Sequence record: CP053388.1
DNA from: Escherichia phage CMS-2020a
Direction: 5' to 3' (one strand)
DNA length: 64,000 nucleotides
Made by a program: the position numbers and the translations under genes. Below, piece by piece: positions 3,195 to 61,525 of the stretch. The notes under the pieces are model-generated. The model did not search any database and was not told the origin of the DNA. It worked only from the letters and a program-made list of their open reading frames with translations. Each line of letters begins with the position of its first letter. The stretch's first letter is position 1.

Positions 3195-3244
3195 GTTTTC
3201 TTATCCTTTTAAACAAATTGTTTTCTTAATAAGATAATTTCGAT

Positions 3245-3278
3245 AAAAAAGGCGTCCAACTGGACGCCTGAACTTTTT
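3245..3278 (-). terminator. intrinsic terminator GGCGTCC-AACT-GGACGCC flanked by A-run and T-run
   Basis: hairpin plus T-tract (on minus strand) directly after stop of 3286..4116. Confidence 0.6.
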
Positions 3279-3285
3279 AGGGGAG

Positions 3286-4116
3286 TTATTTCACTGTAAT
3301 GAAAGGAGTGTTAGCCCCTTGAGTCATGTACTGCGGTAACTGGCCATTCCATTTATTGATGGCTTCCAGCTCCATAACGTTCGGGTTTTGACGCAGAGCT
3401 TCACCGCGCAGACGAATGGCGTCTGCTTCTGCTTGCGCACGAGCACGGATAGCATCAGCTTCACCATTAGCCTGTTCACGTAGCATATTCGCCTCAGCTT
3501 TACGTTGTTCAACTTCCTGCTGACGTTGCAGAGTACGCTGGTTAGCCGTTACTTTGGCGTTGATAGATTCAATGACGGTTTTTGGGTAATCAGGCTTTCC
3601 AACCCATGACAGGCTCAGTACCTCAATACCAACCGGAGACATCTCTTTCTGAATATCTTTCAGTGCGTTGTCCAGCAATTGCGCCTTACCACCGTCGATA
3701 AATGAGTCAGTGGTCATACGGCTGGCCAAACGGTTTAGAGAGTCGGCAATTTTCTGACGCAGATCTGATTCGGTGATATCGTCTACGCCTTTGCGATAGG
3801 TCTGGAACACCGTCGTTACCTTGTCACGATTAACCAGATACGCAACGCCAATTTTGTGACCAATAGCAGTACCGTCACTCATCTGGAATGTGAACGGTTC
3901 GTCGTAGGTCTTCATTTGTTTGAAGGTCGGGAATACGTAAAGTTCGGTGTTAAGACCTGTCCATTGGCGACCAACGCCAACCACTTCACCGATCCCTTTG
4001 TCTTCACCTAATTTGTTTACTTTGATGCCAACGTATCCAGGCTCCACGCGATCACAGCCAGTAAGACCCATTGTGCAAATAGCCGCCAGAGCAACTGCAA
4101 GTAAACCTTTCTTCAT
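3286..4116 (-). CDS. SPFH/band-7 (stomatin/prohibitin-like) domain lipoprotein
   Basis: signal peptide with lipobox LTGC; C-terminal Ala/Glu/Arg-rich coiled-coil typical of SPFH proteins; domain call from recalled family features. Confidence 0.55.
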   Translation of the reverse strand: MKKGLLAVALAAICTMGLTGCDRVEPGYVGIKVNKLGEDKGIGEVVGVGRQWTGLNTELYVFPTFKQMKTYDEPFTFQMSDGTAIGHKIGVAYLVNRDKVTTVFQTYRKGVDDITESDLRQKIADSLNRLASRMTTDSFIDGGKAQLLDNALKDIQKEMSPVGIEVLSLSWVGKPDYPKTVIESINAKVTANQRTLQRQQEVEQRKAEANMLREQANGEADAIRARAQAEADAIRLRGEALRQNPNVMELEAINKWNGQLPQYMTQGANTPFITVK

Positions 4117-4119
4117 TAC

Positions 4120-4320
4120 TTATTTCCCCTTTGCTTTGATTAATGAGTTGATAAACTTACGACCAGCAATAAGACCGATTACAGGAGCACCAAAACCAAC
4201 GATAACTCCAAACATGACGGCTAAATCACTCTTGGTGGAAATCAGCGACGGAACCAGTAAACCGTAGATGAGAGCCACTGAAACGCCTGTGGCTACTGCC
4301 AATAGATAGATTTTGATCAT
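4120..4320 (-). CDS. small two-helix membrane protein (66 aa)
   Basis: two hydrophobic segments; 3 bp upstream of SPFH gene. Confidence 0.5.
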   Translation of the reverse strand: MIKIYLLAVATGVSVALIYGLLVPSLISTKSDLAVMFGVIVGFGAPVIGLIAGRKFINSLIKAKGK

Positions 4321-4383
4321 GTGTTTTCCTATGTGGTTGTTATGCGAAAATAATAAGTAAGTACTTATCTATTTTCAAGAGAT

Positions 4384-4407
4384 AAAAAAGGCGTCCTGTG
4401 GACGCCT
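4384..4407 (-). terminator. intrinsic terminator AGGCGTCC-TGT-GGACGCCT plus T-run
   Basis: hairpin and T-tract immediately after stop of RecA-like gene. Confidence 0.6.
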
Positions 4408-4412
4408 TGTGT

Positions 4413-5486
4413 TTACTCTTCTACTGACTCGGTGGGGTTGTCTTTTGCTCTTCGGTCGTCGATTGCCTGCAAAGCCGCAATGATTTCAGCCAGTGGCTTC
4501 TCCCGATACATCTCGACGATCTGCGATTTGGTGTATTTCTTGTCACCAATTTCAACTCGCCCGCTGGCGTTCTTTGGCAGGTATCCTTCTTCCAGCATGT
4601 ACTCGACGAGCGATTCGATAACGTCGAGGCCACGAGTAGGATCGAAGTAGAATTTCCAGGTGCATTTGCCATACGGTGGTGCAACTTTGTTTTTGATGCA
4701 TTCTGCGCCTACGTCCTGGCCGATCTTCTCTTTACCATCCTTCATCACCGATGCACCAAGACGGATACGTACAGAAGCGTAGAACTTCGGTGAATCTCCA
4801 CCTGGCGACGTAGTAGGGTCGCCAAACATTACACCGATTTTTGTGCGAACCTGATTCAAGAAGATGATGCAGGCGTTGTATTTGCGTGCCCACAAAGCCA
4901 GAGTAGGGAAGTTCGCACTTGTCGCACGAGCCAGTGCCGTATTGTCGTTCATGTTTAGCTGATCTTTGTCTTTGGCAGTGCCTTCAGCCATCTTTTCGAA
5001 CTTCTCGGCTTTGGAGTTCGGAACCATAGACGCAAGTGAGTCAGCCACGATACAGATAGGTGCTGATTCAGGAATAAGCTCTTCATCACGTACCAATTTA
5101 AGAATTGTGCCGATCAACTCTACAGAGTCTTCGAAGGTATCAGGCTGCTTGTATACCCACTGACCGTCATCCTCATCTGCGTTCAGGCCATTGGCTACAG
5201 CCAGGCCAACGTCAAAACTGTTTTCATGATCGAGGAATACCGCCAGACCATCTTGTTTTTGAGCGGAGATCATCGCTGCTGTTGCAAGGAACGTTTTCCC
5301 TGCACTTGGAGGACCGAATACTTCGACGATACGACCACATGGGAAGCCGCCATCGTAACGACCAGAAATAGCTTTGTTTAACGGTGGAAAGCCTGTATCA
5401 ATCCAATGAGTTACTTTCTGAATTTCGTCGTTGCTACCGATTTTCTTTTTCAGAGCAAGTGCCAGTGCGGATTTTCCTTTTGCCAT
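4413..5486 (-). CDS. RecA/UvsX-family recombinase ATPase
   Basis: Walker A GPPSAGKT, RecA-like core spacing. Confidence 0.7.
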   Translation of the reverse strand: MAKGKSALALALKKKIGSNDEIQKVTHWIDTGFPPLNKAISGRYDGGFPCGRIVEVFGPPSAGKTFLATAAMISAQKQDGLAVFLDHENSFDVGLAVANGLNADEDDGQWVYKQPDTFEDSVELIGTILKLVRDEELIPESAPICIVADSLASMVPNSKAEKFEKMAEGTAKDKDQLNMNDNTALARATSANFPTLALWARKYNACIIFLNQVRTKIGVMFGDPTTSPGGDSPKFYASVRIRLGASVMKDGKEKIGQDVGAECIKNKVAPPYGKCTWKFYFDPTRGLDVIESLVEYMLEEGYLPKNASGRVEIGDKKYTKSQIVEMYREKPLAEIIAALQAIDDRRAKDNPTESVEE

Positions 5487-5488
5487 GA

Positions 5489-5761
5489 TCAGGCTCCTTT
5501 TGTTTCGTTGATTCGTTTTAAAGCGGCGGATTCGTCGAATACAATCGCATCGTGGTTAAGGAGTCTGGATACACGAGCGAGGATTTTTACGACCTGCTCG
5601 CTGACTAATCCAAACTCGCGATCTGTCGCTTTCATTCCGGCAGCGCCTAGAATTGACGGCAGTGCGATGACAGCGTACTCACCGTGATAAAAGACAATCT
5701 CTTTTGCCAGTTGGGCAGGGGTGGTTGTAGCGCCATTAATAATCGATTTAAGCATTAGCAA
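5489..5761 (-). CDS. hypothetical protein (90 aa)
   Basis: ORF tightly packed between exonuclease and recombinase genes. Confidence 0.4.
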   Translation of the reverse strand: MLMLKSIINGATTTPAQLAKEIVFYHGEYAVIALPSILGAAGMKATDREFGLVSEQVVKILARVSRLLNHDAIVFDESAALKRINETKGA

Positions 5762-6699
5762 TACCTTTCGAATGGAAGAACAAACACTTCAAGGTCTTCA
5801 AGGAACGAACGGAAATTCAGCTCGTAGCACAGTTGCTCGAATGCTTTCACGTCACGATTGCCTTTGATTGTTTCGATTTCGGTAGGCGGAAACTTCGTCT
5901 CAATCAGGTTCATTAGCGTGATGTTTCTCTTGAACGCTTCGAGCATTCGACAGCCTGTTTTCTCGTTGAAGGCATTCTTCGCTAGTTTGTTGAAGGCGGT
6001 CTTATGGCGTCCTTTGTCAACCACGATTGAGCCGTCGTTGATACCGCGTACCATCGTTGCGACACTTCCCCATTCATGCAGCAGCTCTTTCGCACCGCCA
6101 GCACCAATGCCACCAACACCGCTAATGTTGTCCGATTTATCGCCTTGTAATGCTTTTGCTTCCAAAAATGCGCGAGGAGTAGCGAATCCTGTCAGTTCCG
6201 CAAATTGCTCAAAATTAACCTGCTTGTTTTTGGCGTCTTCGCGCAGGCTTACCCAGCTTACGTTTTCGCGAACTAACTGAAGCCAGTCGCTATCGCCTGT
6301 TAACAGATAGATGTGTTCAACGATTGGCTGCGGTGCAATGCTGGCTACCAGCAGCCCGGCCAGATCATCCGCTTCTGCATCTTTTGCAATGAGTTGGGTA
6401 ACTCCAAGCGCGGTCATCATTTTGAGGATGTATGGCTTCTGGATAGCAAAGCCTTCCTTCATCTTTTTCATATCAGGATCGTCGTCGCGATTTGCTTTGT
6501 AGTCCGGGTAAAAGTCGCGACGCTTGTCACTAAATCCATCCCAAAGAATCATAGGTCGGGCATGGAGGATGGAGGCATAACGACGGACGTTCTTAACAAA
6601 GCCGAAAGCAGCCTGTACTTCCATTTCGCCGTTGTGCAATTTGTCAGATTGTTGGTGGTAATAACCCAGGCTATTGCCATCTACGAAGAGATAATTCAC
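5755..6699 (-). CDS. 5'-3' exonuclease / flap endonuclease (FEN-like)
   Basis: N-terminal YLFVDGNSLGYY, helix-hairpin-helix GVGGIGAGGAKELL; start placed at in-frame GTG 6699 because terminator hairpin 6721-6742 lies inside the longer ORF to 6750. Confidence 0.75.
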   Translation of the reverse strand: MNYLFVDGNSLGYYHQQSDKLHNGEMEVQAAFGFVKNVRRYASILHARPMILWDGFSDKRRDFYPDYKANRDDDPDMKKMKEGFAIQKPYILKMMTALGVTQLIAKDAEADDLAGLLVASIAPQPIVEHIYLLTGDSDWLQLVRENVSWVSLREDAKNKQVNFEQFAELTGFATPRAFLEAKALQGDKSDNISGVGGIGAGGAKELLHEWGSVATMVRGINDGSIVVDKGRHKTAFNKLAKNAFNEKTGCRMLEAFKRNITLMNLIETKFPPTEIETIKGNRDVKAFEQLCYELNFRSFLEDLEVFVLPFERYC

Positions 6700-6714
6700 C
6701 GGTACATTCCTTCC

Positions 6715-6742
6715 AAAAAGTAAGGCGTCCGTAGACGCCTTA
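6715..6742 (-). terminator. intrinsic terminator TAAGGCGTC-CGTA-GACGCCTTA plus T-run
   Basis: hairpin and T-tract after SSB stop; same stem sequence family as terminators at 3250 and 4390. Confidence 0.55.
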
Positions 6743-6759
6743 CTGGTCACGTAATGGGA

Positions 6760-7788
6760 TTACAGAGAGTCCAGCTCTCTCAGTAGGTCATCCAGACCTT
6801 CATCTTCCGTCGCAGATGCGGCTGCTACAGATGTCGCTGCGACTGCTTCAGACTCTTTGACTGATACTGCAACGGCAGCGGGACTTGCTTCTGGTTTAAA
6901 TTCAGTTTCAACGGCACGGAGGATTTCTTCATCAACCAGACTGGTTGGTTCAGAAGCTGGGGTATGAGCGGTAGCTACAGCAGTCGCACCCTCCGTATGA
7001 CCAGTGACAGAGCCAAATCCAGGTAGTGCCGCAGCCGATGTTTTCGCGGTTGAGGAAATTGCTGGTGCAGATGCTGCGGCAGTTGGTGCAGCGATGCCAA
7101 TCAGACGACCCATAGTGCGAACTGTCGACAGAAGACGAGTTTCATCAGCCTGATTTGCGTATGCGATCAGATCATGCTGGGTATTCCAGAATTTATCTTC
7201 GATATCGCCTTTGTAGACTTTACGCTTAGGCGAGACGTCATATTTGGTATCGCGACCAGAGCCAGTACGTTTAATCAGGAATGCGTAGCCTTCCTCTTTG
7301 CTCAGTGGATTGCCGATATCATCAGCGATGTCTTCGGTGATTGCTTTGCAGATATCATCGAATACAGTAGACGGCAGCTCGATTAACTGGCATTTCTCAG
7401 CATCTGCGAAATCCTCACGAGCAGAAAGAATGCCGTTGACCAGGTAGCGAGGAGTGGCACGCATTTGACCGATGCGTTCTTCCATTGCTTTGTTACCCTT
7501 GTGACGAGCGCGACCTTCCATCACCATTTCGCATAGCTGACAAGCGCGACCGTGAGTATGTTGCTCACAAATATAAGCGTTGGTTGCTTCTTTACCTTCC
7601 TCGTTCTGATACTTAACGTAGTGCATACCGAAAGTCTGGAAGAACTTACCGTTTGGGTCGTCTTTATTCGGGAAGATGCGGATATAGTTGACGCCGTCTT
7701 TTAAGCGAGTCAGATCAACGTTGTTACCACGTTTGGCGGCAATGTCTTCACGAGTTTTGTTAAGCAAATCAAGTAATGTCTTAGACAT
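6760..7788 (-). CDS. ssDNA-binding protein, T4 gp32-like
   Basis: N-terminal YIRIFPNKDD resembling recalled gp32 motif, Cys/His zinc-site cluster CEQHTHGRACQLC, acidic C-terminal tail DEGLDDLLRELDSL. Confidence 0.65.
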   Translation of the reverse strand: MSKTLLDLLNKTREDIAAKRGNNVDLTRLKDGVNYIRIFPNKDDPNGKFFQTFGMHYVKYQNEEGKEATNAYICEQHTHGRACQLCEMVMEGRARHKGNKAMEERIGQMRATPRYLVNGILSAREDFADAEKCQLIELPSTVFDDICKAITEDIADDIGNPLSKEEGYAFLIKRTGSGRDTKYDVSPKRKVYKGDIEDKFWNTQHDLIAYANQADETRLLSTVRTMGRLIGIAAPTAAASAPAISSTAKTSAAALPGFGSVTGHTEGATAVATAHTPASEPTSLVDEEILRAVETEFKPEASPAAVAVSVKESEAVAATSVAAASATEDEGLDDLLRELDSL

Positions 7789-7905
7789 GTGTTTCTCCTT
7801 GTTGTGATTTGGCCGATGGCGCTATGCGCGTTGGGCTTTCGTTCATTCGTGGCTCTTTCGAGCTGTTAAATGATAGATCAGTACTTACTTATTATCTATC
7901 AAAAA

Positions 7906-8337
7906 TCAACGGGGAGTAATAAAGCGTTCAGAGCCTAATCGCTCTAATTCAACGATGGCCATCTTTGACGCCTGAACGATCATGTCTCGGCGATGCGAAA
8001 AGGCGGCGACAGCATGTTTGTATATGTCTGCGATGTGCCGTGCTTCATCCAACTTCTGCCGTTTAGACAGATACTGTGGGTTTGTTTTAACCTTAGCGTC
8101 CAGTACAGATTCGTTGAACTTAATGCCGTTCATACTCAAGTTCTTACGCTCTGTGTCGTATAGCTTTGCTTCAACAGCTTCAAGGTTAAGTTTTGCCTCT
8201 GCGACACTTCTTTCTGCATGAGCGAGTTTTGAGCCATACTCCATTAAAAGGCGGGGTTGTCTACGCCAGACTTCCTCCAGATTGTCTCGGTCAAACTCGA
8301 GATCAGACATTATTTTCTCGTAAATATCGGTGATCAT
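7906..8337 (-). CDS. hypothetical protein (143 aa), coiled-coil
   Basis: ORF between DnaE and SSB genes. Confidence 0.45.
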   Translation of the reverse strand: MITDIYEKIMSDLEFDRDNLEEVWRRQPRLLMEYGSKLAHAERSVAEAKLNLEAVEAKLYDTERKNLSMNGIKFNESVLDAKVKTNPQYLSKRQKLDEARHIADIYKHAVAAFSHRRDMIVQASKMAIVELERLGSERFITPR

Positions 8338-8431
8338 GTGCTTTCCTTTTTACTTATCATCTTATATTGATTATATCATTGTGATGATAAGGCAAGGAGT
8401 TCGAGGATAGGGGATATGAGGGGATAAGAGA

Positions 8432-8456: not shown

Positions 8457-8462
8457 ATGGGA

Positions 8463-13480: not shown

Positions 13481-15589
13481 TCACTTTAAAATGATACGAG
13501 ATAGTTCAGTAACTACAGATGAACCAAGACTATCAACGCTCGTTACCAGGGCATGATTTGAGTAAAATCTCTCCGGTGCGTCAGTCATGATGCCAATTGC
13601 CATCAAATCAATATCAGTCTGCGTTTCAATTTGCTTCGCAACTGAACGCAAATGAGCGTCAAAACCTCTCCCAACAGCCCACGGCGCGCCATCACTCAGA
13701 ACAAGCATGATCTTCCTGTCCTCCAAGCGACCGGAAAATAACGATGCAAGGCTGGCTATGCTTTCACCATCCACGTTATTAAGAAGTGGGAATGTGTAGC
13801 CTACGCACCCCATACGTGAGCGAACTTCGCGAGAATTTACCTTTTCATTCCAATTTTTGATGATAGGTAGCATTAAAGATTCAAAGCGAGAGAACTCATA
13901 CTTGACAGCCTTAAGTTCTCCTGCCGCCATATGACTACCAAATGTAGTGAAGCCGGTGATAATGTTGGGAACATTTATTCGATCAAGGGCATCGGCGATG
14001 GTATATGCACTTGCAAGAGCCAATTGTATCGTTATACCACTCATTGAACCTGATAAATCAATCACTTGTTGAACACAGGCGTTAACGGCTTTAGATTCTT
14101 CTTTTTTACGAAACACGCGAGCATCATTCATTGCTAATCTGTAGATACTAGAACCATGAATGTGCCCCCGACGCTGGCCCGGTATAAACTGAACTCTGTT
14201 TCTGCTTGCTATTGCTCGCTCCAGGTCTTTTGCCAGCGTCGACGAAACACCTGACGAAAGATGCTTTTCAATATATTTGTCGAAGAGCTGGTTGCCTTCA
14301 GGAACGATGCGATAGCGGCTGATTGGATATCCTCCCAAATCAATATCGGAGAATGTTTTAATAAGCCGTTTGATATGGGCTTCTGCCTGATCAATCGAGC
14401 CGATGAAGTCGTATGAGCGATTGTATGGCCTGTATTCGCTTTTCGAGCTTTCTGTTAACTCGCTTTTAATCGTTTCGGATAGCGCATCTTCTGTCATGCC
14501 TCCGACTTCATCTTCCATGCTATCCAACTCCTCTAAAGCCTCTTCCAGACTCATTTTTGACGGAGTTGGGATATCTGAAGAGCCGTCTTCTGTCGTTTTT
14601 CTTTTTTCGTGGTCAGCGGTTAATGATTCTGACGCCGCGTTATCAGAAGCATCAGAATCTGATACCTCTTTATCATTTTCTGTATCATCGAATATTGTTT
14701 CTGATGATTCAGAATTATCTGAATCATCACTGTCGTTATTATCATGTTTGTGCTTACTATGTGATTCTGATTCGATAGATTTGTGATTATCTAACACTGA
14801 GGGTGTCTCATGATCTTCGTTGTCTTCACTGTTTTCTCCAGAGGCATCCGTCTGGTCAGCGTCTGAAGGATCGGAAGTTTTTCCCGGAGCTGACTCCTTA
14901 CCTTTGCTTTCACTTTCAGTGTCTTTGAGGATCTTAGCTATGGTCGCAGCCACCTTTACACAATCCTCGGTGCAAGACATGTTACGCACGGCCACATCGA
15001 TACCATGTTCTTTTAATAATGAAATTGGTTTCTCAATGACAGGCCAATATTCATCCATGAAATCTACGAACGGTGCTTGGCCATCCCAGGCTCTTACAAC
15101 CGGACAGAGAAAGAAGTTTAGAAAAAGCGCGCGCTGATCTTTGCCACAATAAGCAATAGCCTCTGAAGCCTTTGGTTTAAAGACTTTTTCGATTATAAGG
15201 CGCTGAGTTGCCATCAGATTACGTCTTGTTCCGTTAAAGACCTCACCCATTTTTCGCTCGATGAACACGTCTTCTAAGGCATTCCATAGCGACCAGGAAG
15301 GAACGCGTCCTTTTTCTCTCATTTTGTTGGACACACGAATATCGGTAAACAAAATGTGAGCAACTTCATGATCGAGAAATCCGCGCACAGCATTCATCAA
15401 TGCCGGTGTTGCGTTATCCGGGATTGATGGGATGTTTACGAGAATTGGATCTCCATCATCGTTATAGCGTACATAAGCGTCGTCCCCTCGTTCTGCAACA
15501 GGGATGTTTTTACCTGAAAGGAGAGCGACTACTCGTTTTACACTGTCACGGAAGTCCTGAACCTCTTTGATGGAACGTTTTTTAGACAT
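13481..15589 (-). CDS. von Willebrand factor A (VWA) domain protein, CobT-like, with long acidic Ser/Asp/Glu-rich linker
   Basis: C-terminal VWA/MIDAS-like segment DLSGSMSG; long acidic low-complexity region; partner of AAA+ ATPase. Confidence 0.6.
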   Translation of the reverse strand: MSKKRSIKEVQDFRDSVKRVVALLSGKNIPVAERGDDAYVRYNDDGDPILVNIPSIPDNATPALMNAVRGFLDHEVAHILFTDIRVSNKMREKGRVPSWSLWNALEDVFIERKMGEVFNGTRRNLMATQRLIIEKVFKPKASEAIAYCGKDQRALFLNFFLCPVVRAWDGQAPFVDFMDEYWPVIEKPISLLKEHGIDVAVRNMSCTEDCVKVAATIAKILKDTESESKGKESAPGKTSDPSDADQTDASGENSEDNEDHETPSVLDNHKSIESESHSKHKHDNNDSDDSDNSESSETIFDDTENDKEVSDSDASDNAASESLTADHEKRKTTEDGSSDIPTPSKMSLEEALEELDSMEDEVGGMTEDALSETIKSELTESSKSEYRPYNRSYDFIGSIDQAEAHIKRLIKTFSDIDLGGYPISRYRIVPEGNQLFDKYIEKHLSSGVSSTLAKDLERAIASRNRVQFIPGQRRGHIHGSSIYRLAMNDARVFRKKEESKAVNACVQQVIDLSGSMSGITIQLALASAYTIADALDRINVPNIITGFTTFGSHMAAGELKAVKYEFSRFESLMLPIIKNWNEKVNSREVRSRMGCVGYTFPLLNNVDGESIASLASLFSGRLEDRKIMLVLSDGAPWAVGRGFDAHLRSVAKQIETQTDIDLMAIGIMTDAPERFYSNHALVTSVDSLGSSVVTELSRIILK

Positions 15590-15687
15590 GGCTAATCCTT
15601 TGTTATGAAAACAAATTATTTACTAGTGTGTTTAATGTAGCACTGCGCGAACAGGGAACTAAGCCATTCGCGCAGGGAGAAGAGGGG

Positions 15688-15900: not shown

Positions 15901-16151
15901 TCAATCAATCCATTCTAACTTATACTATGGTAAGGAATACTACTAAAATTTATATCAATACTGAATACATTCATATCATATACAAGTTAATTTTCTTACC
16001 TGTTTTGGGCTAATTTTTCTCCGTGCAATGGCCTTTAACCGGTCTTTTAAGTGCCTATCGAAAAAAATGATAATAGCTTTACAACCCTAACCTTTGATGT
16101 AATATCGGTAAGCACTTACCAGTGAGAATTGAACGCGCAAAGGTTGTAACA

Positions 16152-16538
16152 ATGTCTGACAACAAGATTGAATTTATAGAAAGTCGCTATGCTGCTTTTA
16201 TCGCAGGGCTGATTGAATCCTCACCTATGAGTCAGGCCCAAATAGCCAGACTTATTGGTTATAAAAATGCCAACAACCTTTCTTTAATTAAAAGTGGCAA
16301 AATTCCATTGCCTATCGATAAGGTTCGTCCGTTGGCGCTGGCGCTGGGTATTGAGCCAAGTCGTCTTATGATGATGGTGCTGGAAGAACGCCAACCTGAA
16401 CTCGCAGCATTTTTATACAAAGAAGGCACCGCTCCTCTTAACGAGGACGAAAAACAGGTTCTTGCTGCATATAACGAGCGATTCGGTAAAGAGAAAGGCG
16501 CATCACAAAAGGTTGTTGAGGCTATAAAGTCTCTATGA
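16152..16538 (+). CDS. XRE-family helix-turn-helix transcriptional regulator (candidate repressor)
   Basis: HTH segment SQAQIARLIGYKNANNLSLIKSGK; start placed at ATG 16152 with AAGG RBS (track ORF starts at GTG 16122). Confidence 0.65.
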   Translation: MSDNKIEFIESRYAAFIAGLIESSPMSQAQIARLIGYKNANNLSLIKSGKIPLPIDKVRPLALALGIEPSRLMMMVLEERQPELAAFLYKEGTAPLNEDEKQVLAAYNERFGKEKGASQKVVEAIKSL

Positions 16539-20750: not shown

Positions 20751-20826
20751 TGGTGCCGGTTAACGGACTCGAACCGCTGACATCCTGCTTACAAGGCAGG
20801 CGCTCTACCAACTGAGCTAAACCGGC
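20751..20826 (-). tRNA. tRNA-Thr (anticodon TGT)
   Basis: hand-folded cloverleaf: acceptor GCCGGTT/AACCGGC, D-stem GCTC/GAGC, anticodon loop CTTGTAA, T-loop TTCGAGT, CCA encoded. Confidence 0.8.
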
Positions 20827-20830
20827 AATT

Positions 20831-20917
20831 TGGTGGGGAGTGATGGAGTCGAACCACCCGAGTCGCCATGACAGTAGATTTACAGTCTACACCGCTACCT
20901 CTACGGACTAACTCCCC
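20831..20917 (-). tRNA. tRNA-Tyr (anticodon GTA), type II
   Basis: acceptor GGGGAGT/ACTCCCC, anticodon stem-loop GTAGA-CTGTAAA-TCTAC, long variable arm, T-loop TTCGACT, CCA encoded. Confidence 0.7.
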
Positions 20918-20922
20918 TAAAT

Positions 20923-20997
20923 TGGCGATGGTGGGTGGATTCGAACCACCGACCAGTTGGTTAACAGCCAACTGCTCTACCGCTGAGCTACACCATC
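20923..20997 (-). tRNA. tRNA-Asn (anticodon GTT)
   Basis: clean cloverleaf: acceptor GATGGTG/CACCATC, D-stem GCTC/GAGC, anticodon loop CTGTTAA, T-arm GGTGG-TTCGAAT-CCACC, CCA encoded. Confidence 0.85.
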
Positions 20998-26564: not shown

Positions 26565-27905
26565 TTAGGTAACGTCTAAGATTCGCTCAATGAAGCGCAT
26601 TTGTTCGAGGTTTTGTTTAACGCGAATGCTGATCCCTCCCTGCTGGTTACGTGAACCGGCAAAGTAGAGACGAGCCTCTCCTTTCGCTTCTTCTTCTTCT
26701 GTTTTGTTGATCGTTATTACCAGGTCAGCAATACGTACTTTTTCGATGTTGTCGGCAGCGTGCATCATTGTGGCAACTTCTGACGCGCCACCTTCACGGT
26801 TTGTTTGCGATGCTGTGATACCAGCAACGTTGTGTTTGTCATAAAGAGCACGTAAGTCGGTATAGATACTACGTATGTTGGCGCGATCATCACGAAGGTC
26901 ATAACTGGCACGCATCAAATCTGCATAGTCGACAACAACCATGTCAGGCACCATGCCATTGGCTTTCATGCTGTTAAGCATACGATCCAGATCTGCCGGT
27001 GACATACTTCCTGACGGACGCTCAACAACCCACAAACTACCAATCCCCTTCGTGGCTCCCAACTCTGCCAACTTACGATGAACCTCATCGCGCCGTTCCA
27101 CCAGCTTGGACATTTCTGTCTCCGACAATCTTGCATCAAAACGGTCGGATAAAATGGTGGTGTGAACCTCCAGCGAGAGATACAGAACATTGTAGCCAGC
27201 AAGTGTTGCGTTTATGGAAAACTCACCCATTGCGGTCGATTTACCGGATTTAGCGAACCCCATGAAGAGCACCATTTCACGCTTCGCCCAGCCTTTTTGG
27301 TACAGCAACCTATCGAGCAGAGGGAGTCCAGTTGTAATGCTGTTTGGCACATACTCCTCTGAAGCCTCATATTCACGCGCCTTCAATCGCTCACTTGCGG
27401 AGGTGTAGTAGTCATAGATTCCGGTCGCTTCGTTCGATCCAATCTGCTGAACCTTGGCCATGATTGCCATCGCCCCCTGAAAGTCGCCCTTCTCTTTCAG
27501 TTCAGCAGCCTTAATCAGAGCATCATCAAACGCTACGCTTTTTGCGAAGGTTGATACCTGGTCAACCATGTACGAGGTATCGGACAATTTTTCTGCAAGG
27601 ATGCGCTTAAACGCAGCAACAACATCGGCGAATAGTTCCTCACGGATAGTCTTATCGCGTTTCGCACGCTTAAGCATATCCAGAATTGCAGATGAAGAGG
27701 GCGCGCTCTTGTACATACGGTAATAGCCCGAAACCATATTAACCAATATGGCATTGGCCGCATTGGCAAATTGGCTAGGTACAACCAGATCTCCAGCACG
27801 AGTAAGAAACTCGTGATCACGACAAAAATAGGCCGTCAATCTGTTCTGAAAATCTTCATCAAACTCTTCGGACAGCCCGCGTCCTGTATGGCAAAGTTCG
27901 GTCAT
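26565..27905 (-). CDS. replicative DNA helicase (DnaB-like)
   Basis: Walker A GFAKSGKST, Walker B VVVDYADL, RecA-like C-terminal domain. Confidence 0.8.
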   Translation of the reverse strand: MTELCHTGRGLSEEFDEDFQNRLTAYFCRDHEFLTRAGDLVVPSQFANAANAILVNMVSGYYRMYKSAPSSSAILDMLKRAKRDKTIREELFADVVAAFKRILAEKLSDTSYMVDQVSTFAKSVAFDDALIKAAELKEKGDFQGAMAIMAKVQQIGSNEATGIYDYYTSASERLKAREYEASEEYVPNSITTGLPLLDRLLYQKGWAKREMVLFMGFAKSGKSTAMGEFSINATLAGYNVLYLSLEVHTTILSDRFDARLSETEMSKLVERRDEVHRKLAELGATKGIGSLWVVERPSGSMSPADLDRMLNSMKANGMVPDMVVVDYADLMRASYDLRDDRANIRSIYTDLRALYDKHNVAGITASQTNREGGASEVATMMHAADNIEKVRIADLVITINKTEEEEAKGEARLYFAGSRNQQGGISIRVKQNLEQMRFIERILDVT

Positions 27906-27948
27906 GTGCTTTCCTTTGTTTTTTAAACAAATTGTTTTCTAGTATTAG

Positions 27949-28698
27949 TTAATTAGATAGGGGATCAATAAACCGCCGTGCTTCTTCCAGTTCTTCTGGA
28001 AAGTGGGCGGAAATAAGGCGCTCTGGAACGATTTCCATTAGCCAGATAGCGGAGAAAATTGCGCGTATGCGCTTGCTGCGGGGGATGGTGCGTAAACGCT
28101 CCAGAATCCACTCAAAATAGCTTTCCTGAATCGGGTTGAACTGCATGTCTCCCATATGCTTAAAGCTAACGAGAGAGTCATCCAGACGGGTTGTTGCGCG
28201 TCTGGCTAATTTCTCTTCAAATATCTCAATCAGTTCTGGCTGCCACAAATGCTGTGGGCGCGGCAGCTTGTCCCACAGCCGTCGTGCAGCTGCGGAAAGA
28301 ACGGTGGAGATAAAGTAGTCGTATGAGCAGCAATAGCGATCCGCAAACTGGCGTGCTTTCCATAGCGACGTTTTGTTGGCAGTCGACAACTCCTGATAAG
28401 GCAGACGTTTTAACCCGGTGGTGAACGGAGCTGTTTCAAAGTGTTCGCGACCGTGCGTCAGCATGATATTTGAGTACTGACGTTTGTATGCCTCCGTAAA
28501 AAGACAGGTGGCCATGAGAGGATGCATGTCGCGGTAATCAAACCACTTCGTCTCGAAGAGTTCAGCCTCGTCTTTACAGCGCGACAAACCAATGTTTTCA
28601 GCGACCCACTTGTCCATAACAGCGGTATTCCACTCTGTCATGAAGTCGTACTGGTCGTTGTCGATGGTATCGAAAAAGATTTGGCTCATGTGGCTCAC
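27949..28698 (-). CDS. hypothetical protein (249 aa), possibly replication-associated
   Basis: first ORF of helicase-primase operon, no motif recognised. Confidence 0.4.
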   Translation of the reverse strand: MSHMSQIFFDTIDNDQYDFMTEWNTAVMDKWVAENIGLSRCKDEAELFETKWFDYRDMHPLMATCLFTEAYKRQYSNIMLTHGREHFETAPFTTGLKRLPYQELSTANKTSLWKARQFADRYCCSYDYFISTVLSAAARRLWDKLPRPQHLWQPELIEIFEEKLARRATTRLDDSLVSFKHMGDMQFNPIQESYFEWILERLRTIPRSKRIRAIFSAIWLMEIVPERLISAHFPEELEEARRFIDPLSN

Positions 28699-29791: not shown

Positions 29792-30151
29792 TTAACCTTT
29801 CTTCATCAACTCTCGTTTGATTTCATCGGTACGCATCGTGACATCGGCAGCGGTGATCGCCTCATTCAATTTCACGATGTCCTCGATTTCCTGCGGTGAC
29901 TTCTCTGCCAGATGGAAAATGGCTGCTCGAATCACGTCAGAACGAGTGAACTTCTCGAAGCGAGGGATGAACTTCATCATCTCCAGCAGTTCGAAGTATT
30001 CGTCCTCCAGTGACATTGTGCGGCTTTTAATTTTCTCTTTGCCACGAGTCGGGCGTCCCTGTGGTCTGACTGGTTGGCGCAAAGGAGTTGTGTTCTTAGC
30101 CGGTGCATCAGGCTCTTTGCGCTTTGCTAGGTCACCCATTTTCATGGACAT
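29792..30151 (-). CDS. ribbon-helix-helix centromere-binding protein (ParG-like small partition protein)
   Basis: 119 aa, basic N-terminal tail, RHH-like segment MSLEDEYFELLE; start overlaps parA stop. Confidence 0.5.
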   Translation of the reverse strand: MSMKMGDLAKRKEPDAPAKNTTPLRQPVRPQGRPTRGKEKIKSRTMSLEDEYFELLEMMKFIPRFEKFTRSDVIRAAIFHLAEKSPQEIEDIVKLNEAITAADVTMRTDEIKRELMKKG

Positions 30152-30819
30152 TATTCTTCTTCCTCCAGACTCAACAGATAATCTACAAATTCTTCAAACT
30201 CGGCTTCCGCCTTTTTGTCGCGCTCGCTACCGGTCATTTCAAAGATAGAACGACCAGACTCTTCCGCATCATCATAGACGTTGCGGTTATACAGATTGAC
30301 TGGCGCAGACTCGATTCCAAACGTCTCAACAATCTCTTTAGCCGCCAGAATGCGAGACACTTGTGATGGCAAAGCCGGGCACTGGTTCATGACCGCGCGG
30401 ACCTTCACTTTATCGTTTACATTGCGAACATTGTCGATAATAGGATCGATGTCACGTAAAGATTTCAAATCACGACGCTTAGGACGCAGCGGGATAATGA
30501 TAACGTCAGCCATCAGCATCGCTTGTCGCTGAATTTCGGAGTCGAAGCCACCAGCATCTACCACTACAAACTCAGCTCTACCCTGAAGCGATTTTAGGTG
30601 CTTAATGATGTCATCCTGAACGTATGCAAAAGGAATCAGCTCAAGGTCTTCGTTCTGTCGACGGTCTTCACACCAGCTCGTTGTCGTGCGCTGAATATCT
30701 ATATCGGTAATATAAACCTTCTTCTTCTTTTTGACTTTCAGGCAAACGGCAATTTGCTGGGCAACGGTGGATTTGCCAGGCCCGCCCTTTGTGCCGCCAA
30801 CCACAAAGATCTTGGTCAT
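30151..30819 (-). CDS. parA: ParA/Soj-family partition ATPase (short type Ib)
   Basis: deviant Walker A GGTKGGPGKST; 222 aa. Confidence 0.8.
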   Translation of the reverse strand: MTKIFVVGGTKGGPGKSTVAQQIAVCLKVKKKKKVYITDIDIQRTTTSWCEDRRQNEDLELIPFAYVQDDIIKHLKSLQGRAEFVVVDAGGFDSEIQRQAMLMADVIIIPLRPKRRDLKSLRDIDPIIDNVRNVNDKVKVRAVMNQCPALPSQVSRILAAKEIVETFGIESAPVNLYNRNVYDDAEESGRSIFEMTGSERDKKAEAEFEEFVDYLLSLEEEE

Positions 30820-31137
30820 TGGAGAGTTCCCTTTGCGTATATAATTATCGTCTGAAACAACTTGTTTTCTTATATGTGATATAGCCTAAATGCCTACGGC
30901 TGCGGTGTAAAGGTTAAATGGTAGGTTGTGATTAACAATTGGCAATCATAGCTTGTATTTGTCTGTTGAAAAAAGTAACAATGACCTCTATATTACAAGT
31001 ACGGTGATATGCCGTACACAATTTGATAATGCACACGTAATGGGCTATAGCCTTTTAAAGTAATTTTTGAGTCGAAAACTCAGTTTGAACAGAGGAGATT
31101 GATGGCCTTCCTACATCACGGCCATCAGGAGGAATAC

Positions 31138-55071: not shown

Positions 55072-55115
55072 AACGCTTTCTCTCCTCTTGGGCGGCTTTC
55101 GCCGCCCAATGTCGG

Positions 55116-56985: not shown

Positions 56986-57010
56986 CTATCAATTCCCTTT
57001 GATTTAGATG

Positions 57011-57898
57011 TTACTTAAGTCCAATTTTCCCCAGACCGGAGGCCAACTTATCCATAGTCGACTTGTTCTTCGGTTGGGATATTGTGTAGGTCGATTTGGA
57101 ATGTGAGCCTACACCCTGCTTGGCTTCGCTACGCATCAATGCGTCAGCTTCCGGATCTGCCCGCACAATGCGTTCAATCGCGGATTCAAACGGCAACGGC
57201 TTACCTTCACCGTCAACCAGAACAGCTCGTTCTTTATGACCTGCCGGTTTGTCATAACCCACTACGCTACCGTCTTCACCCACTTCAAAATGAGAACCGT
57301 AGATCACGCGGGCTTTTGCCGGGGTCATCAGAACTTTGTCACGTAGGAAGAGAGAGTTACTGAAGGAAGCGCCCACGGTCATCTCGACTAATTGAGATTT
57401 CAGTGATGCGTTTTCACTTTCCAGTGCTGTATAACGTTCGTCACGCTGTGCCAGCTCTGCCTGGTGTGCTTCGATCATCTGTTTTTTAACAGCATCGAAC
57501 TCACCACGACGCTCCAGTTCAGCTTGCTCCGCCTCACGACGTGCATTTTCTGCGGCCTGTTCAGCTTCTAAAAGCTGGCGAGCACGCGCCGGGTCGATAT
57601 CACCGTACTGAGCAAGCTGATCGGCCAATGTGCGCTCTTTCTCTTTGCGCTTCATGTTCTCCTTCAGCAGTTCAGCACCAGCTTTCTTGGTTTTACGAAG
57701 TTCGGCCAGTAACTCTTCCTGAGTCATGCCAGCGTATTCGTCATCGCCCTTCGGCTGCTCTTTTTGTTCACCCTGTTTGTCAGGATCTTGTGTGCTCTGC
57801 TCATTATCAGCAGCTACACCGCCAGCGCCTCCACGCTCATGCGCTTCAGCGACATCCATCAGACCACGACGGGCCAAAAGCATTTGCCACAGATTCAT
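57011..57898 (-). CDS. scaffolding protein candidate
   Basis: charged coiled-coil 295 aa between portal and capsid genes. Confidence 0.55.
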   Translation of the reverse strand: MNLWQMLLARRGLMDVAEAHERGGAGGVAADNEQSTQDPDKQGEQKEQPKGDDEYAGMTQEELLAELRKTKKAGAELLKENMKRKEKERTLADQLAQYGDIDPARARQLLEAEQAAENARREAEQAELERRGEFDAVKKQMIEAHQAELAQRDERYTALESENASLKSQLVEMTVGASFSNSLFLRDKVLMTPAKARVIYGSHFEVGEDGSVVGYDKPAGHKERAVLVDGEGKPLPFESAIERIVRADPEADALMRSEAKQGVGSHSKSTYTISQPKNKSTMDKLASGLGKIGLK

Positions 57899-57919
57899 AA
57901 AAATTCCTTTTGTTACTTA

Positions 57920-59494
57920 TCACTCGTTCTCTTGAGTAGATGAGTCCCCATTCCCTCGGGGTTGATCTTGCCCGCTTTCTTGGGCTGCACCACGATAATA
58001 AGTAAGTACTGACTTATTTTCAAGGGTATTTAGATCATTTTTTGGAGGAAAATTCAAGAGATCTTTATCAAATTCCTTTTTCATCGCCTCAGTAATGTTC
58101 GGGAAAATCTTCTCAATAAGCATTTCCATCTGGTGACGACGTACAGAGTCCGGTGCCTGAAGTAATGACAGTTTCTCGGCAACAGAAAATTCATCAGTAA
58201 GGCCACGAATATCGAAACTTTCTGGATACGCAATTAAAGAGTGGTCTTCGTCCAGATCTGCCCCCATCCATTTCGCAACCAGTAGCATGATTTGGCGTTC
58301 AGCCCTTTCCAGACGCTCTGCTTTTGTGACAAGCAAGCTATTTACACGCTGGAAGTCATACATTTTTGCGGCACCAGATGAATTATCGATTCCCTGTGCG
58401 TTGTCCTGCTTCGTTCGCTCACCAGCTACACCAACTGAATGGTAGATTTCGTTAATCACCGTCTTAATCGTAGTGATGATCATCTGAGCTTGTTTCGGGT
58501 CTGGTGACAGATAAAACGGCTGGTTTCCACCTTCAGAATCGTAGGTGAAGACTCGCTTTGTGCCCATTTCAAGCACTTTAGTGTGGTTTTCATCACCAGG
58601 TAAAAGCGACTGTACCGGTATAGCCAACTGGCTAAATGTCTGATCCTGAATAATGGCATCAAGGTTTGACAGATAGTTTGCAACCGCACGATCAAGATAA
58701 GCGATATCATCGATCAACGATGGGCTGAAATACGGTGATTCACTTTCTCCAATACAATCAACAGGAAACACAGGAACTACGCCGAGATTATGCTCACCGC
58801 TATCCTCTAAAATAACTTTTGCCTGACGGCGACCTGCTCCACCAGCGCCCTTCTTCACTTCCTCACGGAACAGATACCACTCGTTTTGTGTCCACAGACG
58901 ATAACGTTGGTATTCCTGACCTGTAGAAGTAAAAGGATCTGCGTCATCACGAGCGACTTCCACAATTAACGCCCACAACATATTCCCGTCGTCGTCCCAT
59001 GCCACATCCAGCATTTGCTGAGGTGAAATCCAGTAGGCGTAGGCGCGAGCATCTTTCTTTTTCTCGTCAGCTACTGACTCAACATCACCACTCATCGTGC
59101 TATCGACAACAACCCATATGCGACCGTAAATAGACGACTGCAAATCAATAGCGGCCATAAATGAGTCAATAGAGGCATTCTGGCGAGTCGCACGTTTCCA
59201 GAAATTGCGGATCTGCTCTGGTGCCTCTTCGATATTTCTATGAATGTCTTCTTTAAAGAGATATTTGTTGATGAGGTTTACCACCTCACGAGTGTGGTTG
59301 AAGCGATAAGCACGTTCAACTCGCTCCTTAAACTCCTGATCTCCCTCTTTAAAGTAACGAAAGATATTGTCTGTAAACCAACCACGCCCGCCAGCGTAAG
59401 TGCTGGCGAGGAAGTCCCAATGTTCTTTTTTCTTTTCGTATTCCGGGTGGCGTCGCGCCACCAGATCCTTAATTTGTTTGTCGTTCAATTCCAT
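57920..59494 (-). CDS. portal protein
   Basis: 524 aa directly after terminase large subunit. Confidence 0.7.
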   Translation of the reverse strand: MELNDKQIKDLVARRHPEYEKKKEHWDFLASTYAGGRGWFTDNIFRYFKEGDQEFKERVERAYRFNHTREVVNLINKYLFKEDIHRNIEEAPEQIRNFWKRATRQNASIDSFMAAIDLQSSIYGRIWVVVDSTMSGDVESVADEKKKDARAYAYWISPQQMLDVAWDDDGNMLWALIVEVARDDADPFTSTGQEYQRYRLWTQNEWYLFREEVKKGAGGAGRRQAKVILEDSGEHNLGVVPVFPVDCIGESESPYFSPSLIDDIAYLDRAVANYLSNLDAIIQDQTFSQLAIPVQSLLPGDENHTKVLEMGTKRVFTYDSEGGNQPFYLSPDPKQAQMIITTIKTVINEIYHSVGVAGERTKQDNAQGIDNSSGAAKMYDFQRVNSLLVTKAERLERAERQIMLLVAKWMGADLDEDHSLIAYPESFDIRGLTDEFSVAEKLSLLQAPDSVRRHQMEMLIEKIFPNITEAMKKEFDKDLLNFPPKNDLNTLENKSVLTYYRGAAQESGQDQPRGNGDSSTQENE

Positions 59495-59520
59495 TTGAAT
59501 AACCTTAGATAACTACTTAC

Positions 59521-60777
59521 CTATCGAGAACCACCAAGAATAACACGGTTTTTGACTGGATACCTACGATGTACTGGATAGCCCAATGCGTCTGCACTAT
59601 GCTCAATGCCACCTGTCTTATCCATATCTCGTGTTCCAGGCTTGTAGATGACTTTTTCCAGTGAATCAATCAAATGCTTGCACTTCGGATCGATATACAG
59701 CCGGATATCTCCAGATGCGGACATCAGCATTCGGTTAACAGCATTAACACGATCCGCAATTGGCGGGTGCTTTTTCGAATAATCGACACGTAAGAATCCC
59801 TTCTCTTTGAATATGTCTACGTCAGACTCCCCACGAGCATGTTGGCGATAAGCACCTGCCGGATCTGGAAATACCGTTACCTGTGATTTCCAGCGCCAGA
59901 AGCGTCTCTCAAGCTCATCACAAACTTCTGCCGTGTTAGAGGAAAAGAGCACCAATTCATCAATTGCCCATAGCTCACCATTTGGCTGAGGTTGCAAAAT
60001 TACTGAAGACATCGGGTCAATGTTGAAGTCCTGCCCTACCCATATAGGCAACCGAGGGTTGAACTGAAGCGGTTTTACATGCACGTTACGATCGAACGGG
60101 TAGTAAACGCGCCCGGACATGTTCTCAAAGCTGGCCAGGTACTCCTGAGCGAACGATTTGGGGTCCATATCGTTCTTAGCAGCTTCAATTTCCGCCGTAG
60201 GTACAAACGGAGAATCGGCAGTTACAAACTGCCAGCTCTTCCACTGTCCCTTTCTTTGCAGCTCTACGTTCTGGCCTATCGTCCACAGTTTGTGAAATTC
60301 CGAGAAGCCTTTTGGCGTACCAATGATCAGTGCACCGCCGCGTGTCGATGAAAGAGTAGGTCGTAACACCTTGTACCAGGTGTCAGCCTTCATATCCTGA
60401 AATTCATCAAGCACTACAAAATGCAACGCTACGCCGCGCAGAGTGTCAGGCTTATCAGCACCTTTGAGGGCGATCTCCGAACCGTTCTTCAACACGATTG
60501 TCATCGTGGTGTCGTTCTTTTTCCTAACCCACTTACGAGGCAGAACTTCCTGTAGATCGTCCCACAAAATCTGGCGAGCCATCTGGTAAGTAGGAGCGAC
60601 ATACCAGACCCTTTGCTTTTTTTCCTTTGCCGCCGCACGAATAATAGTGGAGATCGACAACCGGGATTTTCCCCAGCGTCGACCAGCACAAACAACTTTA
60701 AATCGATGCGGAGACTGGAAGACTTTCATCTGTCCAGAATGCAGTTGCACAAGACTGAGCGAGGACGGGATTGCCAT
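59521..60777 (-). CDS. terminase large subunit
   Basis: Walker A-like AGRRWGKS, Walker B VLDEFQD, acidic nuclease-type C-terminal region. Confidence 0.75.
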   Translation of the reverse strand: MAIPSSLSLVQLHSGQMKVFQSPHRFKVVCAGRRWGKSRLSISTIIRAAAKEKKQRVWYVAPTYQMARQILWDDLQEVLPRKWVRKKNDTTMTIVLKNGSEIALKGADKPDTLRGVALHFVVLDEFQDMKADTWYKVLRPTLSSTRGGALIIGTPKGFSEFHKLWTIGQNVELQRKGQWKSWQFVTADSPFVPTAEIEAAKNDMDPKSFAQEYLASFENMSGRVYYPFDRNVHVKPLQFNPRLPIWVGQDFNIDPMSSVILQPQPNGELWAIDELVLFSSNTAEVCDELERRFWRWKSQVTVFPDPAGAYRQHARGESDVDIFKEKGFLRVDYSKKHPPIADRVNAVNRMLMSASGDIRLYIDPKCKHLIDSLEKVIYKPGTRDMDKTGGIEHSADALGYPVHRRYPVKNRVILGGSR

Positions 60778-61409
60778 TATTCGTCCTCCCCTTCACTTCC
60801 ATCATCTGTCGCATCAAATTCGCTTAGAGCTTCTTCTTCCAACGTCTCAAGCAATTCGTCATCGATGATTTCAGGCTCGTCGTCTTCCTGACGTAATTTC
60901 GCCACCTGGGAAGGCGTAAGCTCACCAAATACCAGGTTCGGAATTTCTTCCTCGTCATTTTCCGCATGATCCATGCCCAATGCTTTGGACGAAACTTCAA
61001 AGCATTTTGCAAGGGTATTACTGGCTCTCTGTAAGCTCTTGAGAGAATCCTCAATCGCCCCTAAAGGCTTACCCTCACGTTTGGCCGTAGTGACTTCGAC
61101 CATCACCATCTGCCCCAACGCATACGCCCAGCCGTCATAACGTGTACGACGTTCTTCTATCTTTTCCGCACGGGCTTTAGCGCGAAGCTCTGCGTCAGAT
61201 TTAAGAGACTCACGAACCATCTTCCCAACAGAGTCCGCGCCTTTCTCTAATCCTCGCTTTTTGAAATGTCTGGAGAGTGTTTCACGACGAATGCCGTACT
61301 CTTCCTCCAGCTTTGAGAGTGTATATTCGCCTGACGTCCATTTGGCTTCAGCTTCGGCCCACTCCGCTGGTGTCAGGCGAGTTTTTACCTCGTCTTTTTC
61401 GACCGTCAT
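60777..61409 (-). CDS. terminase small subunit candidate
   Basis: 210 aa with HTH-like N-terminal region and acidic C-terminus; ATGA-coupled to large subunit. Confidence 0.55.
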   Translation of the reverse strand: MTVEKDEVKTRLTPAEWAEAEAKWTSGEYTLSKLEEEYGIRRETLSRHFKKRGLEKGADSVGKMVRESLKSDAELRAKARAEKIEERRTRYDGWAYALGQMVMVEVTTAKREGKPLGAIEDSLKSLQRASNTLAKCFEVSSKALGMDHAENDEEEIPNLVFGELTPSQVAKLRQEDDEPEIIDDELLETLEEEALSEFDATDDGSEGEDE

Positions 61410-61525
61410 AGATCCCTCTAAAACACACAGAGCGCGTCCATGCGCTCTAAAACAACTTGTTTACTGCATCTGCTAACCAACTTGTTTTCTGGGGTGTTTA
61501 ATTAGGTCTGGCATGTCTTACGAAG

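Follow-up and report, generated by a model that had tools for sequence, protein, structure and literature searches.

The C1 operator of phage P1 is an asymmetric sequence of 17 bp, ATTGCTCTAATAAATTT, that occurs at more than 14 sites. In RK2/RP4 a 13-bp palindrome, OB (TTTAGCSGCTAAA), is present in 12 copies and is bound by KorB, a partition protein of the ParB type, while the ribbon-helix-helix (RHH) protein omega of pSM19035 serves both as a partition adaptor and as a repressor of several promoters, and binds short asymmetric repeats. Uniform modules of a terminator hairpin and an early sigma-70 promoter, the PeSLs, flank small variable early open reading frames (ORFs) of phage T4, and at the level of the messenger Salmonella FljA blocks ribosome binding on the fliC mRNA. 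Here, we describe a repeated element in a stretch of 64,000 nucleotides of Escherichia phage CMS-2020a (CP053388.1), hereafter called the window. A palindrome that had been noticed in front of several of its operons, among them the one that begins with the gene for the terminase small subunit (terS), is the core of a 17-base control sequence at the promoters or leaders of about 20 genes, and this 17-mer is most likely the docking site of one, putative, master regulator.

The window is about 97-99% identical to PhiR41_1 and Cyrano, about 88% to Salmonella phage SSU5 and about 80% to Klebsiella SSU5-like phages, and is by sequence comparison an SSU5-type phage-plasmid. These phage-plasmids are very common in Enterobacterales, and their lysis-lysogeny and maintenance circuitry is essentially uncharacterised. 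In PLSDB, 831 plasmids carry the FljA-like protein that is used here as a marker of the family, including those of the Salmonella Typhi pHCM2 type, Yersinia pestis pMT1 and carriers of resistance genes. A single 17-bp element that marks about 20 transcription units defines a regulon and gives a direct handle for finding its master regulator; it also offers a simple means of promoter annotation and gene-start correction across the family. In the literature that was searched for spelled-out variants of the core, no paper printing the motif was found.

The core, AAACAANTTGTTT, has four exact matches in the window (at 3211, 27925, 30855 and 61450) against 0.01 expected, and none of 100 shuffled sequences reaches four. 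The palindrome at the loci listed in the original prediction is thus real, and the coordinates given there were right to within one base (27924, 30854 and 61449 become 27925, 30855 and 61450), an immaterial difference. When the 16-mer of that prediction is allowed up to two mismatches, eight matches at six loci are found against 0.22 expected; the added loci are 15609, the weaker match of that prediction, and 61475, its second tandem copy. A position-weight matrix scores only these six loci above 17 bits in the window, and in shuffled sequence the same matrix yields 0-5 matches that reach 10 bits, none of them close to 17 bits. All six copies lie upstream of minus-strand ATG codons, at distances of 15-64 nucleotides (nt; Table 1). 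The TCT that had been seen to trail the palindrome is present, but becomes a leading AGA once the sequence is read on the coding (minus) strand, where the consensus is the asymmetric 17-mer AGAAAACAAnTTGTTTA with the palindrome as its core. The weaker match that had been reported near 15610 is a decayed copy; the orthologous site is near-consensus in SSU5, Klebsiella pJN2-26, Enterobacter plasmid pCP102 and pMT1.

The five or six sites first reported underestimate the scale of the system. Whole relatives were scanned (CMS-2020a, SSU5, Cyrano, pJN2-26, pMT1 and pCP102), and strong sites number about 18-20 per genome in CMS-2020a, SSU5, Cyrano and pJN2-26 and about 16 in the deeply diverged pCP102, which is about 71% identical over the aligning half of the window. 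The element is thus conserved across the whole SSU5 family, and the six sites in the window represent about one third of the genome-wide set. Orthologous positions are found before terS, the partition gene parA, a DnaB-like helicase gene, cobT, nrdB, a tciA/terB-like gene and a block of small early genes. Cyrano has 18 sites that score at least 20 bits. Non-coding sequence makes up 13% of its genome and holds 15 of them (P = 3e-11), the remaining three being at doubtful annotated starts; for 13 sites, a gene in the same orientation starts 10-64 nt further on. A scan of IMG/VR showed that every multi-site locus comes from an SSU5-like contig of 57-112 kb, often with a novel early gene set; outside the SSU5-like family it returned single matches only, at about chance level. 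The window, SSU5 and Klebsiella differ in the flanks of the helicase and cobT copies but retain the 17-mer itself. Likewise, lineages with a diverged partition module (ParG-like protein 48-64% identical; L148, L152) have an otherwise unalignable sequence upstream of parA that retains a -10-like TAGGCTAnA, ACATA and the 17-mer. The appearance of unselected copies can be seen in a decayed, integrated SSU5-like remnant in an Escherichia coli chromosome (L017; CP125919.1, 381158-401682), which has fragmented ORFs, an FljA-like gene whose product is 48% identical, and several visibly decayed 17-mers such as AGAAAACAGTTCGTTTA. The annotated starts of CYRAN_105 and CYRAN_110 (Cyrano 95805 and 97903) overlap or precede the succession of 17-mer, Shine-Dalgarno (SD) sequence and ATG and are likely misannotated, a downstream start being suggested in each case.

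Conservation was counted in 218 distinct contexts. Positions A5-A9, T12, T14 and T15 are nearly invariant (C7 in 212/218, T12 in 217/218 and G13 in 201/218) and the central base is fully free (55/59/54/50). The 5' flank AGA is kept in 186-201 of the contexts, the mirror flank is A/A/G and not TCT, and one-sided changes number 24 in the left half and 68 in the right half (P = 2e-6). No compensatory double change occurs in the six symmetric pairs of the 218 contexts, 17 G13-to-A changes each break the only G:C pair, the energy of the isolated hairpin is -0.7 kcal/mol, and no Rfam family matches the element. Because the AGA flank and its mirror do not match, changes are one-sided, covariation is absent and the hairpin is weak, the 17-mer is an intrinsically asymmetric site, specific in sequence, around a palindromic core, and neither a hairpin nor a classical two-fold operator. 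A reading as hairpin or structured RNA is ruled out by the lack of covariation, the negligible stability and the missing Rfam match. The proposal that the palindrome is the operator of a second regulator is supported in that a specific, selected site with a regulon of its own lies at the promoters or leaders of several operons, but not in that the site is a symmetric palindromic operator.

The position of the element relative to promoters was derived from a locus-by-locus search for sigma-70 promoters, and all promoter and +1 positions given here are predictions; a literature search found no transcription start site or small RNA (sRNA) data for pHCM2 or pMT1. Gene-oriented copies mostly lie 10-11 nt after a -10 hexamer (74 sites), often one of the extended type TGnGATAAT or TGnTATTAT, and for antisense copies the spacing is 17 nt (38 sites) when the same -10 region, which is quasi-symmetric, is read in reverse. 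The antisense copies stop 16 nt short of the sense -10 (TGnGAAAAT/GATAAT), on its upstream side, and are centred near predicted position -38; whatever the orientation, it is the AGA end that points towards the -10. Some promoters (Cyrano 97189 and 85817, pJN2-26 21772) have the -38 copy only, and paired copies are about 51 bp, or five helical turns, apart. The helicase locus has the same predicted architecture in six lineages: a -35 TTGAT(C/T), 16 nt, a -10 TAnnnT with differing hexamers, 0-2 nt and then the element, at about -6..+12. Since the element overlaps the predicted +1, the helicase transcript is predicted to start without AGAAA. At cobT the element is predicted at +3/+4..+20 behind TGn-extended -10 elements. 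At the CYRAN_58 ortholog, a 141-amino-acid gene whose -35 lies inside the 3' arm of an upstream terminator hairpin (3244-3272), it is predicted at -2..+14 in the window and at +3..+19 in SSU5 and pCP102. Predicted overlaps with the promoter thus include -38, -6..+12, +3..+20 and +7..+23.

The -10 regions of the repeated cassettes in the early region of relatives are quasi-symmetric (TGcGATAATAACA, with TGTTATTATCgca as reverse complement; for example Cyrano 93113/93162, 85817 and 97189; pJN2-26 21772, 23661 and 28538/28587), which predicts divergent starts 18 bp apart. Stem-loops follow directly after the antisense 17-mers and their arms co-vary between copies (GGCCAC/GTGGCC, GGCTAT/ATAGCC, GGCAGT/ACTGCC); antisense 17-mers and stem-loops together may constitute small antisense RNAs.

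Expression in the plasmid state was taken from the per-gene summary of one published RNA-seq set of LF82, a Cyrano lysogen (PMC9928086, S1 Table). Genes preceded by the motif have 5-13 normalised counts compared to a prophage median of 9.8, and no signal above background is seen for 12 of the 15 genes downstream; seemingly constitutive promoters are therefore silent in the plasmid state. The exceptions are parA with 50 counts (89 and 55 for the next two genes), the helicase with 21 and CYRAN_111 with 26, and ciprofloxacin induces Cyrano 39-fold (PMC9928086).

The explanation that we favour, and to which we give an even chance of being correct, is that the 17-mer is the common DNA operator of a global repressor encoded by the element itself, forming a family-wide regulon of SSU5-type phage-plasmids. 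At sigma-70 promoters, mostly of the extended -10 type, the copies would fall within the stretch of DNA that RNA polymerase covers, and a phage-plasmid repressor on these sites would block open-complex formation or promoter escape, and paired copies about five turns apart that flank a promoter would allow cooperative binding. In this way early, nucleotide-metabolism, replication and terminase units would be switched off for as long as the plasmid state lasts, and repression of parA would be partial. A DNA operator is supported by the palindromic core with its free centre, by the finding that the copies share only the RNA-polymerase footprint, by the promoters with a copy at -38 only, by the conserved helicase architecture and by the silence of the lysogen at the RNA level. 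More broadly, we place the element in a regulon of dispersed operators on a mobile element; the chance that it is something more unusual is a real one.

Compared to the described systems, the element resembles the P1 C1 operators in that both belong to phage-plasmids in which one asymmetric operator of about 17 bp is distributed over diverse operons, sometimes in pairs, with genes that are silent in the plasmid prophage; the 16-20 copies per genome before terS, parA, helicase, cobT, nrdB, tciA and small early genes agree in this with a network of the P1 type. However, the sequence is unrelated to ATTGCTCTAATAAATTT, the core is a perfect 13-bp palindrome, most copies lie just past +1 and abut the SD, and no C1 homologue or C1-like family was detected among the candidates scanned. 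With KorB-OB it shares a 13-bp palindrome in many copies, a free centre, a copy at the partition operon and positions that include about -40, but the partition partner is here a small RHH-like protein of type Ib and not a helix-turn-helix (HTH) ParB, the flanks are asymmetric, and pMT1 keeps sites without this partition module. Omega is likewise a small RHH protein of partition and repression that recognises asymmetric repeats in various orientations, but its sites are arrays of 7-bp heptads upstream of promoters, in contrast to single or paired 17-mers mostly at +3..+20. In function the element thus appears closest to the P1 C1 operators and the KorB-OB and omega regulons, and by our comparison it belongs to none of them in sequence or protein.

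Which protein would bind the operator can be narrowed down by its distribution. The XRE/HTH protein encoded at 16122-16538 of the window had been named as a possible cognate factor, but SSU5 lacks it and yet has about 20 sites. This protein (CYRAN_45, 'putative repressor') was rejected together with its neighbour CYRAN_46 of 70 amino acids and the S24 protein CYRAN_98, since SSU5 and/or Klebsiella lack them and nevertheless retain the full set of sites. After this phyletic exclusion three universal or near-universal candidates remain. The ParG-like protein, also proposed originally, is still a viable one, although the RHH signal behind it is weak. Together with the CYRAN_117 family it is tentatively the best DNA-binding candidate: both proteins are small, conserved across lineages and expressed in the lysogen (89 and 114 counts, respectively; PMC9928086, S1 Table), and carry RHH-like signatures with invariant strand residues. 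The RHH fold would suit a compact 13-bp core, and the availability of RHH-like candidates counts in favour of a DNA operator. The operon of the ParG-like protein itself begins with a copy of the 17-mer. CYRAN_117 (92 amino acids, encoded outside the window) has an N-terminal RHH-like signature in which the strand residues C-Q-V-x-L are invariant at only 37-58% identity, aligns in register, non-significantly, with CopG, and is present in every family member examined, including pMT1.

Several observations speak against the favoured explanation. Every position relative to +1 rests on predicted promoters. Once the flanks are included, conservation lacks the two-fold symmetry that a palindrome bound by an RHH or HTH homodimer usually shows, and the 2.8-fold excess of one-sided changes in the right half points the same way. 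The distance from the 3' end of the element to the start codon peaks at 10-13 nt, so that the SD abuts the element, which fits an RNA operator equally well, and if the symmetric -10 regions fire both ways all copies would read 5'-AGAAAACAA...-3' in a transcript. The RHH-family matches of the candidates are statistically weak, and no copy of the element was found at the promoter of the CYRAN_117 operon. In pMT1 (L153/L154) the type Ib parA/ParG-like module and the SSU5-backbone helicase region are lost, yet the FljA-like gene, the CYRAN_117 and CYRAN_123 orthologs and six intact 17-mers are kept, which counts weakly against the ParG-like protein as pMT1 is too young to decide the matter; for the same reason its use as a natural ParG-like knockout was rejected, its closeness to SSU5 leaving no time for unused sites to decay. 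Finally, the motif does not vary between lineages, not even between those in which identity has fallen to 54% for the FljA-like protein and to 48-64% for the ParG-like protein, which leaves a test for co-variation between protein and motif without power.

The strand asymmetry of the element, its co-orientation with the downstream gene and its adjacency to the SD are also what would be expected of an RNA operator, in which an FljA-family protein binds the 17-mer in the 5' leader of the mRNA and blocks the ribosome at the adjacent SD, the untranslated message being lost through polarity and decay. We consider this unlikely, though it is the main rival explanation. Such a protein is indeed universal in the family (CYRAN_114 = SSU5_121 = pJN226_0046; outside the window, CMS-2020a 68799-69308), matches PF03614 over its full length (E = 1e-80), is predicted by modelling to adopt a tandem Hfq-like (Sm) fold, and is retained even in non-flagellated hosts. 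As in the FljA-fliC system, every member of the family has an FljA-family protein and most copies of the element would lie in 5' leaders next to the SD; moreover, the 8-mer CAAGUUGU is common to the element and to fliC leaders of the Salmonella and Citrobacter type. If the -10 regions fire both ways, with starts 18 bp apart, the antisense copies would also lie in short leaders, before the stem-loops. On the other hand, the estimated chance probability of the 8-mer match is only about 0.03, and in the leader of E. coli fliC, itself FljA-repressible, the shared 8-mer is replaced by CAA-CGAC-UUG. FljA has one known target compared to about 20 here, and the phage-plasmid protein is only 35-40% identical to true FljA. 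At the helicase the overlap with the predicted +1 in six lineages would deprive the transcript of AGAAA, antisense copies near -38 are predicted to lie outside the sense transcript of their promoter, and a perfect 6+6 palindrome without hairpin covariation is left unexplained by single-strand recognition. No copy of the element that could serve autoregulation was found upstream of the FljA-like gene, and expression of that gene in the lysogen is modest (18 counts; PMC9928086, S1 Table). The annotated SSU5_121 (SSU5 L005:46897-47415) is likely about 25 codons short.

An extended form of the RNA-level explanation, which we regard as somewhat more doubtful, holds that the FljA-family protein, a predicted tandem Hfq-like protein, is a post-transcriptional master regulator that occludes the SDs of about 20 leaders, with the antisense copies acting as decoy or antisense RNAs. 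The duplex between two copies of the 17-mer has an energy of -12.9 kcal/mol, and the palindromic core can pair with every leader. If true, this would be a self-contained regulon of an Hfq-like chaperone and sRNAs on a mobile element, and either RNA-level version would give the FljA family a role much wider than flagellar phase variation.

The repeated surroundings of many copies raise the question of whether a dedicated trans-acting factor is needed at all. The 17-mer could belong to a cassette that has been duplicated and is moved by recombination (terminator, extended -10 promoter, AU-rich leader, SD), and be kept by descent and gene conversion, and as an AU-rich translational enhancer or S1-binding leader. 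In relatives, uniform cassettes flank novel early gene sets (3-9 sites per locus, of which about 0-15% aligns to CMS-2020a). The SD is adjacent to the element, and the T7 gene 10 leader, which we take to be AGAAAUAAUUUUGUUUA, matches the element at 13 of 16 specified positions. Uniform cassettes around variable early ORFs in a hyperplastic region also recall the PeSLs of T4; PeSLs, however, have no embedded 17-mer, and the element described here is found at the core genes parA, helicase and terS as well. We judge this explanation improbable. The 17-mer is more conserved than the neighbouring -10 hexamers and is kept at the non-cassette loci parA, helicase, cobT and terS, with differing promoters and spacings and about 30% divergence of the flanks. 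The near-invariance of C7 and G13 around a free centre indicates specific recognition and not general AU-richness, antisense copies have no gene to enhance, and the genes that follow the element have good promoters but are silent in the lysogen.

The terS leader differs from the other loci in several respects. The tandem copies described before are present in the window as direct repeats 25 bp apart, but the arrangement is not universal: in Klebsiella pJN2-26 a 25-bp deletion has collapsed the pair into a single copy. The hairpin noted beside them also exists, with an 8-bp stem that is followed by TGTGTTTTAG; it is terminator-like (stem, then UGUGUUUUAG), and in a diverged lineage two of its stem pairs are changed on both sides in a compensatory manner. 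The promoter search predicted no sigma-70-like promoter upstream of terS. In the minimum free energy fold of the leader the two tandem 17-mers pair with each other directly ahead of the hairpin, and on this folding model the leader may be an attenuator.

A large conserved AT-rich palindrome, CCTGCTTCTGTATATATAAATAATAAGTAACTTATTAAATATATACGGAAGCAGG, occupies positions 61526-61580 of the window, at a distance of 40-65 bp from the tandem 17-mers and terS, on their upstream side. Because the linear GenBank records of SSU5 and Cyrano start and end within it, this palindrome is probably the cos/pac region. The proximity of the tandem copies to this genome end would suit a packaging site of the terminase/cosB type, and the resemblance of the element to the lambda H' core TATCAATTTGTTG would suit a site for the host factor IHF, whose consensus we take to be WATCAANNNNTTR and which the element fits at 7 of 9 specified positions. 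Either role is very improbable. About 18 other copies lie at gene starts far from the genome end, and the terS pair is single in Klebsiella. The IHF site was rejected on its conservation pattern: positions that are free in IHF sites are nearly invariant here (T12, G13), and two IHF-defined positions are consistently wrong. Directly upstream of the palindrome and terS lies the conserved gene CYRAN_123 (61605-61871, minus strand; 88 amino acids), whose product weakly matches winged-helix families (Sta1/Lrs14, LexA DNA-binding domain). The gene shows no expression in the lysogen, and its product may act as a DNA-binding factor for packaging or late genes.

Table 1. Copies of the 17-mer, associated predicted features and sites of a second motif in the 64-kb window.
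Feature	Position	Strand	Location or composition	Score (bits)
17-mer AGAAAACAATTTGTTTA	3210..3226	-	15 nt 5' of ATG of 141-amino-acid gene (2769-3194; CYRAN_58 ortholog)	28.7
Predicted sigma-70 promoter	3231..3259	-	-35 TTGGAC (3254-3259), 17-nt spacer, -10 TATCTT (3231-3236)	
Decayed copy AGTAAATAATTTGTTTT	15608..15624	-	18 nt 5' of cobT/VWA gene (13481-15589)	
Predicted extended -10 (TG-n-TACATT)	15634..15642	-	9 nt 5' of cobT copy; element predicted +4..+20	
17-mer AGAAAACAATTTGTTTA	27924..27940	-	18 nt 5' of DnaB-like helicase gene (26565-27905)	28.7
Predicted helicase promoter	27941..27968	-	-35 TTGATC (27963-27968), 16-nt spacer, -10 (27941-27946) abuts 17-mer; element predicted about -6..+10	
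ParG-like gene	29792..30151	-	second gene of parA operon; RHH-like signature, fold assignment weak	
17-mer AGAAAACAAGTTGTTTC	30854..30870	-	34 nt 5' of parA (30151-30819)	26.3
Predicted parA promoter	30883..30911	-	-35 TTTACA, 17-nt spacer, -10 TAGGCT; element predicted +7..+23	
Terminator-like hairpin	61428..61449	-	conserved, between tandem copies and terS Shine-Dalgarno	
Proximal terS copy AGTAAACAAGTTGTTTT	61449..61465	-	39 nt 5' of terS	23.2
Distal terS copy AGAAAACAAGTTGGTTA	61474..61490	-	64 nt 5' of terS ATG (61409)	26.1
TACTTATC motif	4362, 8351, 13457, 19247, 21745/21759, 25267, 28715, 46018, 56091, 57914			

The 17-mer had been described as distinct from a second dyad, TACTTATC, and the two are indeed separate. 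The latter (GATAAGTA on the gene strand, often TGATAAGTAA) forms a motif class of its own that is separately enriched in the window (11 sites against 1.5 expected) and precedes a different gene set, lying from a few to about 50 nt (mostly 10-30) 5' of the starts of uvsY, the CYRAN_31 and CYRAN_34 orthologs and structural genes. A search of the phage collection gave no FljA-like match in the more remote TerL relatives, which are phages of Stenotrophomonas, Rhizobium and Pseudomonas with a size of about 110 kb. The window also contains three consecutive tRNA genes at 20754-20997 on the minus strand (Rfam RF00005), which at the orthologous place in Cyrano are annotated as Asn, Thr and Ser.

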